64,000 bases of DNA. Source: Salinispira sp. (lineage in GTDB: Bacteria; Spirochaetota; Spirochaetia; DSM-27196; Salinispiraceae). The stretch covers positions 1,856,001 to 1,920,000 of the forward strand of contig OZ271918.1 in assembly GCA_965602015.1 (NCBI GenBank), written 5' to 3'. The position numbers were made by a program, and so were the translations under genes. Numbering within the stretch: the stretch's first letter is position 1; every line of letters starts with the position of its first letter. Positions 3,108 through 9,489 of the stretch are shown one piece after another. The notes beneath the pieces were generated by a model. It worked only from the letters and a program-made list of their open reading frames with translations. It ran no database searches and was not told the DNA's origin.

Positions 3108-3749
3108 TTAGCGCTCCCGGCGGCGGCTTTGAACAAATCTCTTGAGATCGTGAATATTTCGCACCATGATGCGACCGGGGGTTACCTCGATTTTATTCTG
3201 GGTAATAAGCTGATTGATGATGTCACGGGTTTTTTCCGGGGAGATACCCGCCCAATGTGCCACGTCATCGATTGACACCTCAAAGACCTGCTGATTCCGT
3301 TCAGCCTGATCGGCGGGAAGCTGTTCGCTGAGCATGAGAAACACATCGGCGATCCGGGCCTGGTTGTCGTCCAGGGTGAGTATCTGAAAACGCCGACGCT
3401 GATCGTAAATCCGTTTGGTAAAGAGCTTCAACAGCTTGGTGGCAATCTGAGGATTGCCCTGCAGCAGAATCTCAAAATTCTCCCGGTTGAACTCCAGGGC
3501 CTTGACCCGGTCGAGGGCGATGGCGCTTGCAGAGCGGGGAGCTTCTTCCAGAATCGCCATCTCTCCGAAAATTTCCCCGGGGTAGAGAACGTCGATGGTT
3601 TTTTCGATGTCCCCCATAATTTTTGAGATTCGTACCCGGCCTTCCTGTATCAAGTAGAAAGCGTCGCCGGGCTCGTACTCGCAAAATATGATGTCGCTTT
3701 TTTGAAAATTCACTGCGAAACGCTCGAAGGCCGCGGTGTTGAAATTCAT
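3108..3749 (-). CDS. Crp/Fnr family transcriptional regulator
   Basis: cNMP-binding GEIFGEMA...PRSASA and C-terminal HTH (DDVAHWAGIS). Confidence 0.9.
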   Translation of the reverse strand: MNFNTAAFERFAVNFQKSDIIFCEYEPGDAFYLIQEGRVRISKIMGDIEKTIDVLYPGEIFGEMAILEEAPRSASAIALDRVKALEFNRENFEILLQGNPQIATKLLKLFTKRIYDQRRRFQILTLDDNQARIADVFLMLSEQLPADQAERNQQVFEVSIDDVAHWAGISPEKTRDIINQLITQNKIEVTPGRIMVRNIHDLKRFVQSRRRER

Positions 3750-4759
3750 GCCTTGCCCTCCAGTTTGCGGATGGCCGCGTTGGCTTTTCGACGGTTTGCT
3801 TCGTCGATGGACGGCAGCTGCAGCGCCCGTTGATATACCTTGGCTGCCTGGGCCCGGTCGCCTGAGTGGGCATATGCTTCGCCGAGATACACCAGAGCTT
3901 CGGGCACCCGGCGGTTATCCGAATTATTCTGGATGTATGCCGACAGGTGTTTCACGCAGGTCTCGCTTTTTCCCAGTCCCAATAACGCCTTCGCCATTTC
4001 GATATTAGCATCGTGAAAGTTACCGTGCTTTGGACCTTTTTTAATGATGTCCGCAAGGATTTCCGCCGCCCTGAGGTAATCCTGCTGACCGAGAAAGCTT
4101 TCGGCCTTGTAGTACTCCTGCTCTTCCTCGCTGAGTTGAGGCTTTTCCTTCGGCGCAAGGTTTGGATTATTTCCCGCGGCCTGCGCTCCGGCGATAATCG
4201 CCGGCCCCCTGCCCCGTCCGTACTGCTGGGCATACTCTTCTGCAGTCTTTAAGTAGCCCGCAGCCCGGGAAACATAGGCTCCTGAGGGAAAGTGTTCCAG
4301 GTATTTTCTCAACGTGTAGATGGCTTCGGGATACGCCTGCTTCTTCAGGTAGTACTCCGCGATTTTATACAGCCCGTCCTCGGGAACTTCCCGCTTTCCC
4401 ATCGCCAAAAGATTGCGAACCTTCCCGTGTATTCTCCGCAACTGATTGCTAAAAACCTTGAGCATTTTCATGATAATGCGGGTATTTTTACTGACGAGGA
4501 TTTCAAATTCCGGCACGGTGAACATGAGGCATTCGCTGTCCGACAGTACAATGGCGTCTTCCTCCCGGGGATAATGGCCCAGGGCCGACTTCACTCCGAA
4601 AAACTCGCCGGTGCGAATCAGATCGGTAAGCTCTTCACCGGTTTCGATGTCAACGGATTTGAGAATGATCTTTCCGGATTGGAGGATGTAGATCTTATCG
4701 CCCATATCCCCGGTGAAATACACCACCGAGTTGGCATTGTAGCGCATCGCTTTCGGCAC
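3746..4759 (-). CDS. Cyclic nucleotide-binding domain plus TPR protein
   Basis: GEFFGVKSALGHYPREE cNMP domain followed by TPR-like helices; overlaps the Crp gene by 4 nt. Confidence 0.85.
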   Translation of the reverse strand: MPKAMRYNANSVVYFTGDMGDKIYILQSGKIILKSVDIETGEELTDLIRTGEFFGVKSALGHYPREEDAIVLSDSECLMFTVPEFEILVSKNTRIIMKMLKVFSNQLRRIHGKVRNLLAMGKREVPEDGLYKIAEYYLKKQAYPEAIYTLRKYLEHFPSGAYVSRAAGYLKTAEEYAQQYGRGRGPAIIAGAQAAGNNPNLAPKEKPQLSEEEQEYYKAESFLGQQDYLRAAEILADIIKKGPKHGNFHDANIEMAKALLGLGKSETCVKHLSAYIQNNSDNRRVPEALVYLGEAYAHSGDRAQAAKVYQRALQLPSIDEANRRKANAAIRKLEGKA

Positions 4760-4849: not shown

Positions 4850-5680
4850 ATGGCCATCCACGAACTACATTGTCACAGCACCGCATCCGACGGCAGCCTT
4901 AGTCCCGCGCAACTGGTCACCCGGGCTTCGCAGGAAGGTTTGGCGAGCATTTGCATAACCGATCACGATACCATTGCGGGAATCGAAGAAGCCGAGAATG
5001 CCGCAGCCACCCTCGATCTTGAGGTGATCCCCGGCATCGAGATTGAGATTTCTCATCCCTCAGGGGCATTTCACCTGCTGGGACTCGGAGTTCGTTTTCA
5101 CAAGGGAATTTTGGATGATATCCTTCCCCGCATCATACAAGACCGGGAAATGAGGAACCGGACAATAGCAAAAAAGATGGGGCGCATCGGCGTTCCCGGC
5201 TCGTACGCCGATGTGGTCAAACTTGCCCGGGGAACTGTGGTCGGCCGCCCGCATTTTGCCGAATATCTCATTCTGAAGGGATTCGCCGTCGATACCGCCG
5301 ATGCCTTTGAGCGCTTTTTGGGACCCGGCCAGCCCCTGTACACGCCCCGGGAAGGCATTCCCCTGGATGAAGCCATCGAAAAAATCCATCTGGCAGGGGG
5401 GAAGGCCGTAATAGCCCATCCATCGAGTCTCCATTTGAGCTGGTCAAAGCTACGGCGGGAGCTGGCCGAATGGGTAACCCTGGGCCTTGACGGACTGGAG
5501 GCATTTCATTCCTCCACAAAATACCGGGACGGCCTGAAGTTTCAGGCCATCGCAAGAGATTTTGGTATCCTGGCCACGGCGGGAAGCGATTTTCACCATC
5601 CCGATCAGCCCCACAAGCGCTTAGGGCACCACAGCATTGAGCAGATGGAGATCGGCGATGAGTTTCTGGAGGGATTGTGA
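4850..5680 (+). CDS. PHP-domain metal-dependent phosphoesterase (YciV/TrpH-like)
   Basis: HELHCHSTASDG, TDHDT, GRPH, AHP, GSDFH. Confidence 0.92.
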   Translation: MAIHELHCHSTASDGSLSPAQLVTRASQEGLASICITDHDTIAGIEEAENAAATLDLEVIPGIEIEISHPSGAFHLLGLGVRFHKGILDDILPRIIQDREMRNRTIAKKMGRIGVPGSYADVVKLARGTVVGRPHFAEYLILKGFAVDTADAFERFLGPGQPLYTPREGIPLDEAIEKIHLAGGKAVIAHPSSLHLSWSKLRRELAEWVTLGLDGLEAFHSSTKYRDGLKFQAIARDFGILATAGSDFHHPDQPHKRLGHHSIEQMEIGDEFLEGL

Positions 5681-6624
5681 CAGGCTCCCGGGAGAGGTCA
5701 TGGGCAAACAGATTTCGAGCTTCCGTTTTTACACTGCTGCTTCAAAGTCTATTTATCATTCTCCCCGTTAACGGACAGAGTTTTCCCGAACTGGAAAGCC
5801 TTACCAACAGCGATCCCATCTTCCTTCAGATAATAGATGACATTCAGGCCTTTTACCGCTGGGAGGCCGGGGTTGAAGAGTCGCCGCGGCTGAGCATCTA
5901 TCACTACCGGATCGCAGAATCCGACACCCTGTTTTCCCTGGCCGCGCGATTAAATCTTCCTCAGGCAAGTCTGGCGACCATTAACCGGCTGGACAACCCT
6001 GACCTGCCTCCCCCGGGAAGCCTCATACGCGTACCGAATATCCCCGGCATTTTTATCCCCGAGACCGCGGTAAGCGATTTCGAGCGGATACTCAGTTCCC
6101 GAATACGGGAGGACGGAAGCTTCGAGCTGAGCGAGGTCTTCCGCATTCCCGGCAAGGACGGAACCACCGAAGCCTGGCGATTTATTGTGGCCGGTGATTT
6201 TACATCCCTTGAGCGCCGGGCCTTCCTTCAGGTGCTGTTCCGCGATCCCCTACCGGGAAGCCGGATTTCATCACCTTACGGTACCCGGCTGAGCCCCATA
6301 ACCGGCCGTCCCCAGTTTCACATGGGAATCGATATGGTTGCGCCGGCGGGCACCGAGGTCGGGGCCAGCGCGGAGGGATCGATAATCGACCGGGGTTTTG
6401 ATCCGATTTATGGAAACTACCTCAGCATCGGGCATCCCGGGGGCTACGAGACCACCTATGCTCATTTGGATGAAATGTTTCCGGTTATCGGGCAGACCGT
6501 GAGGAGCGGAGAGCGTATCGGGACGGTGGGCTCCTCCGGGCTTTCCACGGGATACCATCTTCACTTCGAAATACGATATTTAAAGCGGAATCGCGATCCC
6601 CAGGACTACATTCGTCGGGATTAG
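5677..6624 (+). CDS. LysM plus M23 peptidoglycan endopeptidase
   Basis: DTLFSLAARLNL LysM; HMGID, YAHL, STGYHLHFE M23 motifs. Confidence 0.9.
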   Translation: MTGSRERSWANRFRASVFTLLLQSLFIILPVNGQSFPELESLTNSDPIFLQIIDDIQAFYRWEAGVEESPRLSIYHYRIAESDTLFSLAARLNLPQASLATINRLDNPDLPPPGSLIRVPNIPGIFIPETAVSDFERILSSRIREDGSFELSEVFRIPGKDGTTEAWRFIVAGDFTSLERRAFLQVLFRDPLPGSRISSPYGTRLSPITGRPQFHMGIDMVAPAGTEVGASAEGSIIDRGFDPIYGNYLSIGHPGGYETTYAHLDEMFPVIGQTVRSGERIGTVGSSGLSTGYHLHFEIRYLKRNRDPQDYIRRD

Positions 6625-6653: not shown

Positions 6654-6682
6654 TTAACGTTTTGGCGGGAATTTACGATAAT
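6654..6682 (+). promoter_or_regulatory. Putative sigma-70 promoter for candidate sRNA
   Basis: TTAACG-17 nt-GATAAT immediately before the structured region. Confidence 0.5.
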
Positions 6683-6686
6683 AGCA

Positions 6687-6781
6687 GTGTCGGCCGGGGT
6701 ATAGTTCCCCTCCCAGTTTGCTATATTTCCTGGTCGATACCCTTAAGGGTTGGCCGGTTCTAACGAACCGGCCTTTTTTTT
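6687..6781 (+). ncRNA. Candidate small RNA with C-rich (anti-SD-like) loop and intrinsic terminator
   Basis: 13-bp stem (4 G-U pairs) plus 5-bp upper stem enclosing TTCCCCTCCCAGTTTG; followed by a terminator; no credible ORF. Confidence 0.6.
6752..6781 (+). terminator. Intrinsic terminator
   Basis: GGCCGGTTC-TAAC-GAACCGGCC followed by T8. Confidence 0.9.
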
Positions 6782-6813: not shown

Positions 6814-6843
6814 TTGACATTCCTTCGGGGAACGGCGTAATCT
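6814..6843 (+). promoter_or_regulatory. Putative sigma-70 promoter of the PBP1A gene
   Basis: TTGACA-18 nt-TAATCT, 9 nt before ATG 6853. Confidence 0.55.
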
Positions 6844-6852
6844 CTACCCTGT

Positions 6853-9489
6853 ATGGCTTTATCTCAAAAAGGAAAAACCCGAATAAAAATTATCGCCGGA
6901 GTACTGGCGTTTTTTGTTGTGGCTTTTGCCGCCGTAATCGGCATCGCCATCGGTTCGACATATAACCTCGAAGGACTCAGCGATTTTAATGAATCCAGCG
7001 CCGCCCTGCCGACTCAGGTCTACGACCGGGACGGGCGCCTGATTACGGAATTCTTCTCCGATGAAAAGCGCGAGTTGATATCCATCGAAGAACTCCCCCG
7101 CCACCTTATATACGCGGTAATTACCCGGGAGGACCGGAACTTCTTCGAGCACTGGGGCGTCAGCATTACCGGCACCACCCGGGCGGCCATCGGTTATTTC
7201 ACCGACAATTTTGTCGGCGGCGGTTCAACCTTGACCCAGCAGCTGGCCACCATGCTCTATCTCGATAAAAGCGATGTGAGCGTCAGTCGGAAACTGCGGG
7301 AAATATGGATAGCCCTTCAGCTTGAGCGGAACTGGTCGAAGAACGAGATTCTCGAGGAATACCTCAATAAATCATGGTTCGGTCACAACACCTACGGGGT
7401 GGAAGCCGCCAGCCAGTTTTTCTTCGGACATTCGGCCCGGGACCTGACAATCGCCGAGAGCATGATGCTGGCGATCCAGCTTTCTTCCACCAGGCGATAC
7501 AGCCCCCTTGTTAACCCCAATGTGGCCCGGGAGCGCCAACGGGAAATGCTCAATGAGATGGTGGTCCAGGGCTATGCGACGCAGGAAGAGGTGGACCGTT
7601 CCTTCGATGAATTCTGGGCGAACTACGATTATACCCGCTCGGGGACCACGACAGCCTTTTTCGAACGCCAGGACCGGGCACCGTACTTCAGCGAACATGT
7701 GCGCTTCCTCCTGGAAAACGAAATTCTCCTGGGAAGTTCGGACATTTATCGGGACGGATACAGCGTCTACACCACGCTGGACCTGGAGTATCAGGACATC
7801 GCCCGGGAAGAACTTCAACAAGGCATAGCCAGCGCCAACGAAATCTACGACCGCAACACCGCCGCCAGGGCGAGTTTTGCCACCGAGGTGTTCGTTCCGG
7901 TTATAGACCTGCTGTCCTTGGGTTTTGATGTAGAGCAGCTTAGGGTCGCCGGTGAAAAACAGCTGCAGGGAGCCAAGCAGTATTTTCAAAATGAACTGAC
8001 TCCCATGGTCGATATGCTCACCCTGCTTACCGACAGCACAAATGTCGGCGGCCTGCGGGAGCTCACCGCCGTAAGTTATGAGTCCAAGGAAGAGAACCAG
8101 AAGCAAAATACCGTCGAAGGGGCCATAATTTCCCTCGAGAACGACACTGGTCACGTTGTCGCCATGATAGGCGGCAACCGCTTCGAGCAGACGAACCAGT
8201 TTAACCGGGCCCTCCAGGCATCGGTTCAACCGGGGAGTTCCTTCAAGCCGCTGTACTACGCAGCGGCCATCGAAGAGGAAGTGGTCACCCCGGCGACCAT
8301 GATCTACGACAGCCCGGTTGTGTTCTGGAACGATGACGGAACTCCCTACACTCCCACAAATTACCGGGGAGAATGGGACGGTCCGGTGCTCACCCGATAC
8401 GCTTTGGCAACAAGTATGAATGTTCCTTCCTTGAGGATCTTGAGCAGGCTCGGATTTGACGACGCCATCGACATTACCTCCCGGCTTTTAAACATCGACG
8501 AGCGGGACCAGGTTGGTCACGGGCTGGTACGCAAGTATCCCATTGGCCTCGGGGTTATTTCCGTGTCGCCGATTATGATGGCCCAGGCCTTCGCCACCTT
8601 TCCCAATGAGGGGCGCAGGGTTACTCCGCTGTTTGTCCGCTACGTCGAAGACCGGACAGGCCGGATAATCGCCGAGCCTGAGAGGCAGCTACGGGAAGAA
8701 CAGGCAAGAATGGGGCGGGAGCTTCAAATAATCAGTCCCCAGACCGCGTACATGATGACAAACATGCTCGAATCAACCATCGATTACGGCACCCTGGCGA
8801 ATCGTCGCCGTCTTGTCGGCGGATTCGACGACATGCCCATTGCCGGAAAGACCGGCACCACCCAGAACTGGTCTGCCCTATGGACCGTCGGCTTCACTCC
8901 CTATTACACCACCGCGGTGTGGATAGGCTTCGATGAGGGTAACAATTCCCTCGGCGTTAACCAAACGGGAGCCGTCACCGCCGGTCCGATTTGGGCGTGG
9001 TACATGAAACGGGTACACGAGGGCATGCAGCCCCGGCCGTTTGTCAGACCCTCCAGTGGCTTGGTCGAACTGGAAGTCACCAGCCGAAACGGACTCCTGC
9101 CTCCGGCGGGATTCCAGGGCTCGACCTACACGGAAATTTTCAGGGAGGGTACCGAACCCCGGGTCTTCGACAGCAGCGAGCAGTTTTACCAAAATGTCGC
9201 CGAGAGCGGAACCCAGAAACTGGAAGTGAATATTCAGGAAGGCCGCCTTGATATCAGCACCATAAACGGGCGGAATATCGGTTCGGCGAACTTCGGCCTG
9301 GAACTCAACCTGGATCTCTCCTTGACACTCGATCCGCTGGTCTTTCCTGATCAGGCGGAGAGCTCCCAATCGCTGAGTTTTGACGATGATTTTTCAAATC
9401 CGTTTTTTGATGACGAGGAAGACCGGGATCTTATTCCGCCCGAGGGCGGCAGTACCAGTGACGACGGTTTTAACCCGTATTTGGACTGA
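6853..9489 (+). CDS. mrcA: Class A penicillin-binding protein 1A
   Basis: N-terminal TM; EDRNFFEH and GGSTLTQQL transglycosylase motifs; SSFK, SMN, KTG transpeptidase motifs; acidic tail. Confidence 0.93.
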   Translation: MALSQKGKTRIKIIAGVLAFFVVAFAAVIGIAIGSTYNLEGLSDFNESSAALPTQVYDRDGRLITEFFSDEKRELISIEELPRHLIYAVITREDRNFFEHWGVSITGTTRAAIGYFTDNFVGGGSTLTQQLATMLYLDKSDVSVSRKLREIWIALQLERNWSKNEILEEYLNKSWFGHNTYGVEAASQFFFGHSARDLTIAESMMLAIQLSSTRRYSPLVNPNVARERQREMLNEMVVQGYATQEEVDRSFDEFWANYDYTRSGTTTAFFERQDRAPYFSEHVRFLLENEILLGSSDIYRDGYSVYTTLDLEYQDIAREELQQGIASANEIYDRNTAARASFATEVFVPVIDLLSLGFDVEQLRVAGEKQLQGAKQYFQNELTPMVDMLTLLTDSTNVGGLRELTAVSYESKEENQKQNTVEGAIISLENDTGHVVAMIGGNRFEQTNQFNRALQASVQPGSSFKPLYYAAAIEEEVVTPATMIYDSPVVFWNDDGTPYTPTNYRGEWDGPVLTRYALATSMNVPSLRILSRLGFDDAIDITSRLLNIDERDQVGHGLVRKYPIGLGVISVSPIMMAQAFATFPNEGRRVTPLFVRYVEDRTGRIIAEPERQLREEQARMGRELQIISPQTAYMMTNMLESTIDYGTLANRRRLVGGFDDMPIAGKTGTTQNWSALWTVGFTPYYTTAVWIGFDEGNNSLGVNQTGAVTAGPIWAWYMKRVHEGMQPRPFVRPSSGLVELEVTSRNGLLPPAGFQGSTYTEIFREGTEPRVFDSSEQFYQNVAESGTQKLEVNIQEGRLDISTINGRNIGSANFGLELNLDLSLTLDPLVFPDQAESSQSLSFDDDFSNPFFDDEEDRDLIPPEGGSTSDDGFNPYLD

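Follow-up and report, generated by a model that had tools for sequence, protein, structure and literature searches.

What is encoded between the M23-type peptidase gene (5677..6624, plus strand) and the PBP1A gene (6853..9489, plus strand) of this Salinispira window, i.e., of the whole 64,000-nucleotide stretch analysed here? An earlier note had placed a self-contained unit in this spacer, and its coordinates hold, with a predicted small RNA (sRNA) of ~95 nt (6687..6781, plus strand, the 5′ end inferred from the position of the −10 box) that has its own promoter form and its own terminator. The 5′ hairpin (6687..6740, plus strand) is built on a lower stem in which 6687-6699 pairs with 6728-6740 through four G-U pairs, an arrangement already proposed and borne out by folding, followed by an upper stem (6700-6705/6720-6725, plus strand) around a C-rich 14-nt loop (6706..6719, plus strand). 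This loop presents the seed UCCCCUCCCA (6706-6715), complementary to UGGGAGGGGA, and contains CCCCTCCC (6707-6714); opening the loop costs 0.4 kcal/mol in the window copy, and predicted folds leave the seed free in 156/160 distinct copies. A small linker hairpin (6740..6749, plus strand, from folding and alignment), variable and missing from some copies, precedes an intrinsic terminator (6752..6781, plus strand) with the perfect 9-bp stem (6752-6760/6765-6773) and T8 (6774-6781) expected from the earlier reading. The fold of 6686-6781 on the plus strand reaches −43.6 kcal/mol (z −4.69, equalled in 0/200 shuffles), and the previously proposed preference for a plus-strand RNA is recovered for the 5′ hairpin by itself, with a z of −5.03 on the plus vs. 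−0.47 on the minus strand. The element is present once in the source genome (G000), and the plus strand of this copy shows no conserved reading frame.

Such an element might instead act in cis, either closing off the upstream operon at its 3′ end or serving as a leader that controls PBP1A. PBP1A (TIGR02074 above cut-off) is indeed the usual 3′ neighbour of the RNA (115/131 copies with flank), and no terminator-like site was scored between the M23 gene and the sRNA, so that read-through from the former would end at the terminator of the RNA. The upstream gene is however variable, the M23-type peptidase (best NCBIfam matches under cut-off) being the 5′ neighbour here and not in general (20/127 copies with the window's protein as query), many copies from outside the class are not beside PBP1A, and the element combines its own conserved promoter with a terminator that looks constitutive. 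Moreover, the next gene has a separate sigma70-type promoter candidate, as had been anticipated (TTGACA ... TAATCT, 6814..6843, plus strand, with TTGACA at 6814-6819), and TTGAC[ACT] occurs 25-330 nt beyond the hairpin in 96/124 copies with enough flank. A cis element is thus very improbable. Two further features of this neighbourhood are worth recording. The PBP1A start codon lies ~10 nt past the candidate −10 box without a Shine-Dalgarno sequence (window 6814-6855), likewise in two same-genus genomes, and the message may thus be leaderless; and two neighbouring CRP/FNR-like genes, one with a fused TPR domain, lie beside flgF/flgG-like genes (window 3108-4759, minus strand).

Broadly speaking, the element is conserved across much of the phylum. 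It was identified in 58/61 order-level genomes (loci read after a DNA search matching 59/61), the three others being 74-88% complete, and the 14-mer around the loop is exact in 57 of these 58 copies, with one mismatch in the last. A covariance model built from the 58 copies matched 85/85 further loci tried and 108/151 genomes of a class sample. Within a phylum sample, 73/151 genomes were carriers, 30 by covariance model and 43 by diverged copies, which synteny, a pattern or a DNA search brought up and which were accepted after visual inspection of promoter, loop and terminator. Finally, a pattern scan of named genomes yielded at least 120 loci: 115 of the 120 listed share the architecture, no record name comes from outside Spirochaetota, and the carriers include records named Alkalispirochaeta, Sediminispirochaeta, Marispirochaeta, Salinispira and Treponema. 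The remaining five loci were dismissed as chance matches (covariance model 0/5), and phage carriage was likewise rejected, as four viral matches were the reverse of ribosome-binding sites, without stem or promoter.

The structure covaries. Changes on both sides were found at 18/19 pairs of the model-fitted alignment (A3; 12/12 hairpin pairs and 6/7 terminator pairs), in which 95.8% of cells are paired and the pairing exceeds 500/500 shuffles and every slid control, and at 9/19 pairs of the unfitted alignment (A1; hairpin 6/12). The earlier proposal of an unannotated RNA gene, most likely acting in trans, whose loop exposes an anti-Shine-Dalgarno-like sequence is thus supported by both conservation and covariation, and we infer that it is expressed as a discrete transcript. 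Rfam 15 offers no known cis-element or other family in its place, with no gathering threshold reached by the window (best 24.0 of 41 bits) or by the element at eight further loci (best 25.1 of 41 bits). The families suhB/mmgR (RF00519), SorX (RF02784) and SorY (RF02651) resemble it in having a GC-rich terminator and C-rich bases of anti-Shine-Dalgarno-like character, but score 20-25 bits against gathering thresholds of 41, 46.6 and 111 in alignments resting on the terminator, and have nothing corresponding to the spirochaete 5′ hairpin.

Across its range, the element varies in form and is lacking from several families. Some diverged copies are without the 5′ stem (families f26 and f38), and five of these (L351-L355) represent a minimal ~60-nt form made of promoter, unpaired seed and terminator, located before PBP1A in an FlmR-like layout. 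Two others (L216 and L217, f24) carry an additional hairpin 3′ of the loop that creates a three-way junction with the seed still unpaired, and a second, weak model match in one genome (G016:C62:109738-109828, 33.8 bits) is a possible paralogue. In G148 (C1 775181-778252), 2.3 kb separate the RNA from fliA, and in G122 (C1 497518-501422) it is located downstream of fliF at a distance of 2.1 kb. By covariance model, no copy was detected in families f25 and f30 (0/21 each) or f56 and f58 (0/8, with nothing upstream of PBP1A in the 2/2 genomes read), and neither pattern nor DNA search returned one from the genomes tried of f32, f21, f22, f29 and f42. The element was also lacking from f46 (0/6 genomes) and was not found in f15, where the loop motif is absent upstream of PBP1A in 2/2 genomes. 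A typical copy (L159) in a record titled Borreliella garinii (MAG), unlike the f15 genomes tried, probably reflects a mislabelled bin.

Which sigma factor would transcribe this RNA? The TTAACG-17-GATAAT promoter of the earlier note exists as a match, but its sigma70 reading does not stand: it agrees at 9 of 12 positions, a chance-level score for the region (two such matches found vs. 1.5 expected), the hexamer starts with G, and the mean agreement with the consensus TTGACA is 2.4 of 6. The same window bases can be read as TAAC-N15-TACGATAA, and this is the form conserved in relatives, i.e., a sigma28-type −35 element TAAC (6655..6658, plus strand; TAAA, TTAA or TAAG in relatives) and a sigma28-type −10 element TACGATAA (6674..6681, plus strand) with a conserved CGA core. 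In the conserved pattern, TAA-N-15 nt-nnCGATAA, the spacing to T[AT]A is 15 nt in 107/160 distinct copies (vs. 1 at 13 and 11 at 17), and the CGA core is present in 57/57 order-level and 156/160 distinct copies. The sigma28 −10 consensus is GCCGATAA, and against this sequence the −10 box averages 6.6 of 8 positions. One of the three flagellin genes of the source genome carries TAAA-N15-TCCGATGT (within 400 nt), and the Treponema denticola promoter PflaB2 has the −10 box CCGATAA and the −35 box TTAA (PMC9481697). A genome scan with the promoter matrix gave 133 matches, mostly noise and no usable regulon, among which the element ranks 6th. In 26/160 copies (e.g., L021, L027 and L010), the sigma28 spacer holds an inverted repeat, TCGTCG-N-GAGACGA, that overlaps the −10 box; this possible operator is conserved in part of the order and is not in the window copy.

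The RNA co-occurs with FliA, which the source genome encodes. In the class sample, the RNA was detected in 108/125 FliA-positive vs. 0/26 FliA-negative genomes, and 17/125 FliA-positive genomes had no covariance-model match. The FliA-negative genomes comprise family f15 plus f59, f64, f68, f69 and f73, and an FtsZ tree of 49 rows separates them into two well-supported groups, the second of which is nested among carriers. Families f59, f64, f68, f69 and f73 are likely the non-motile Sphaerochaeta group (compare the listing in PMC3372971); a PBP1A match was lacking in 3/3 genomes tried from this set. Family f15, with small genomes in which fliF is retained, is likely Borrelia, which according to PMC11607428 is sigma28-less and alone in this among spirochaetes. 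Together with the promoter form, this co-occurrence suggests that synthesis of the RNA is driven by FliA.

The loop in turn points to fliF as a candidate target. In 51/65 carriers, fliF has the loop's complement, GGGAGGG(G), as its ribosome-binding site, and the predicted duplex reaches −16 kcal/mol or lower in 59/65 carriers with a fliF start read. Across the division-flagellar cluster, GGGAGGG precedes fliF in 21/22 carriers, whereas none of the 29 other genes compared has it in more than three. GGGAGG is in itself a strong Shine-Dalgarno sequence. A coding origin of the motif was rejected, since the sites sit in non-coding spacers of 23-351 nt past the upstream stop, 1-10 nt from the start codon. 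In the source genome, the fliF site (G000:C1 2126640, minus strand) has an opening cost of 2.1 kcal/mol and is enclosed by a predicted local hairpin; cofolding of the whole molecules gave no loop-ribosome-binding-site duplex there, with a program that cannot model kissing loops. The fliE-fliF spacer is long in this genome (351 nt, G000:C1 2126641-2126991, minus strand, vs. 325 in G002 and 31-270 elsewhere), leaving room for a promoter or structure of its own. Genome-wide, GGGAGGGG precedes 9/3259 crude gene calls in G000, with fliF 4th and ftsZ 5th by duplex energy, and the sole matches to the pattern in G003 are fliF and the opposite strand of the RNA itself.

Variants of the seed provide a further line of evidence. 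In family f28, 4/4 genomes combine a 3-C loop with GGGAGGG-A at fliF, and G074 combines a CCCUG loop with a UAGGG target. The permutation value for seed covariation is 0.005, a figure that ignores kinship, and this covariation is thin, given six carriers in which a 4-C loop nonetheless faces a 3-G site and given that kin are not independent. Pairing at fliF is weaker in G066, G075 and G118 (−13 to −14 kcal/mol; two of the three belong to f12), and the fliF match is absent in 3/3 genomes of family f50, where the RNA is present (duplex −6 to −9.5). Conversely, GGGAGGG stands at fliF in 10/36 genomes with no RNA found (including 3/3 of f32 and 2/2 of f42); fliF or ftsZ sites in such genomes may reflect missed RNA copies or a site retained for another reason.

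The second gene with a recurrent site is ftsZ, whose ribosome-binding site is the loop complement in 42/49 carriers overall. After 14/17 carriers of a first set, ftsZ was checked in 70 genomes not used earlier, and the motif was found in 22/24 class and 6/8 outside-class carriers, vs. 0/18 FliA-negative genomes and 0/6 outside-class genomes without the RNA. It is also present in 4/14 FliA-positive genomes without a model match, all from f79, a family that also has carriers, and there is no ftsZ site in G071. The motif was found in 0/7 genomes of f56 and f58; these families keep FliA without RNA or ftsZ site, which suggests that the site tracks the RNA and not motility alone. The source-genome site (2136287, minus strand) has an opening cost of 6.9 kcal/mol.

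Other genes were considered as well. The same RNA could be a broad anti-Shine-Dalgarno regulator with lineage-specific targets (fliE, fliI, fliM, fliA, fliP, murF, flagellin), fliF and ftsZ being merely the most conserved and division control incidental. Consistent with this, the motif also precedes murF and fliI in G000 and is nearly matched at fliA, duplex energies of −16 kcal/mol are reached by fliE in 8/21, fliM in 6/16 and fliP in 3/16 carriers, and f50 has the RNA without the fliF site. Yet fliF and ftsZ are the only genes to recur between genomes when the motif-led genes of seven genomes are read (16/27 sites for G089, part for G148), and the median duplex of every other gene is −14.4 kcal/mol or weaker, which makes the broad regulator unlikely. 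As a general target, fliP was set aside (3/16 carriers, absent in G000, although blind-chosen starts may be off), as was rRNA, whose longest exact complements measure 9 nt and include one within a 23S CCCC-GGGA-GGGG hairpin. In one case, that of a 522-aa protein (L632, G000:C1 1382970-1384585, plus strand; probably a lipoprotein, no Pfam match), a full GGGAGGGG site is combined with a sigma28-type promoter close to consensus immediately upstream.

Could the loop bind a protein, such as a KH-domain or other C-rich binder, with the fliF and ftsZ match reflecting a shared strong ribosome-binding site? A protein ligand would also fit a loop that stays invariant while its stem varies, the fliF motif is kept in those 10/36 genomes where no RNA was found, and Hfq (PF17209) was not found in G000 (99.67% complete; control positive in 5/14). 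On this account, however, it is hard to see the ftsZ motif gone both where the RNA was not found and FliA is lost (0/18) and in f56 and f58 (0/7), the motif leading just 9/3259 genes in G000, and two seed variants fitting their own fliF sites. We consider protein binding quite improbable.

Taken together, these results make it probable, in our judgment, that this is a ~95-nt trans-acting RNA with a sigma28-type promoter, whose UCCCCUCCCA loop pairs with the ribosome-binding sites, GGGAGGGG, of both fliF and ftsZ, thereby lowering translation of the two genes. In the proposed sequence of events, completion of the hook-basal body would render FliA active and FliA would transcribe the RNA, whose loop would then cover the Shine-Dalgarno sequences of fliF and ftsZ inside long operon messages. 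Given the lack of a detectable Hfq in the genome, this loop pairing would be Hfq-independent. The bases predicted to pair in vivo make up the Shine-Dalgarno sequence, at 1-10 nt from the start codon, and pairing there would block the 30S subunit. This argues against an RNA that pairs but activates or stabilises its messages, or is titrated by them as a sponge; the local hairpin predicted around the fliF site in G000 would suit such a role, and MotR, a sigma28 sRNA of Escherichia coli, raises flagella synthesis (PMC10578931), but we see little likelihood in it. Under the repressive reading, translation of FliF and FtsZ would fall in a late-flagellar feedback. FliA activity follows completion of the hook-basal body (PMC11607428), and the RNA, made from that point on, would prevent the initiation of further MS rings and keep FtsZ low, tying flagellar number to the division cycle. 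It is tempting to extend this, tentatively, to an ancient phylum-wide checkpoint in which the finished flagellar base frees FliA and one RNA shuts off both FliF and FtsZ, coupling the number of periplasmic flagella to division, with FliA-less lineages having lost the RNA and both sites having decayed; we regard this wider scenario as possible, if somewhat less likely than not.

How does this RNA compare with known systems? It has two features of a FliA-dependent feedback sRNA, a sigma28-type promoter and complementarity to the fliF translation start. According to PMC4626219 and PMC11187230, CJnc170/FlmR and CJnc10 (CjNC4 and CjNC1) of Campylobacter jejuni are likewise stand-alone, FliA-dependent and terminator-ended, with a CGAT-type −10 box, and are predicted to cover the ribosome-binding sites of earlier flagellar genes; for the spirochaete RNA, FliA dependence and terminator use are predicted from sequence. 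Hfq independence in a reporter and shortened flagella on overexpression are also described there. These RNAs differ in being <50 nt long, with a single-stranded 5′ seed and an AT-rich pairing region, in having the sigma54-class targets flgE, flaB and flgP, and in being restricted to thermophilic Campylobacter (PMC4626219 and PMC11187230), whereas the spirochaete RNA is ~95 nt long, has a C-rich hairpin-loop seed and the predicted targets fliF and ftsZ, and spans much of a phylum. By length and architecture, it falls outside the CJnc170/CJnc10 family as this is described in PMC4626219. It would work like FlmR/CJnc170, a likeness we draw as an analogy and not as kinship. In E. coli, a late flagellar sigma factor also drives feedback sRNAs (UhpU, MotR and FliX, together with FlgO), but these are UTR-derived, Hfq-bound and found only in some Enterobacteriaceae, and MotR and FliX pair within coding regions, with no targeting of the FtsZ or FliF ribosome-binding sites seen in the sections of PMC10578931 covered. 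No description of the spirochaete RNA was found in the literature searched; for spirochaetes, the main texts of two Breaker/Weinberg motif papers (PMC8632094 and PMC5737381), checked by term, give only Leptospira motifs and ldcC.

Beyond the earlier reading, this analysis contributes a sigma28-type promoter and two conserved candidate targets, fliF and ftsZ, as predicted from the genomes compared. Spirochaetes assemble their flagella at the ends of the cell, and division is poor in flagellar mutants. One conserved sRNA with predicted sites at both fliF and ftsZ makes the division-motility link directly testable, a link that PMC11607428 describes as open for spirochaetes. Regulatory RNA families with broad conservation are few in this phylum, and the sRNA would add one, Treponema-named records included, as well as a case of predicted Hfq-free loop pairing in which seed and targets can be traced through independent losses.
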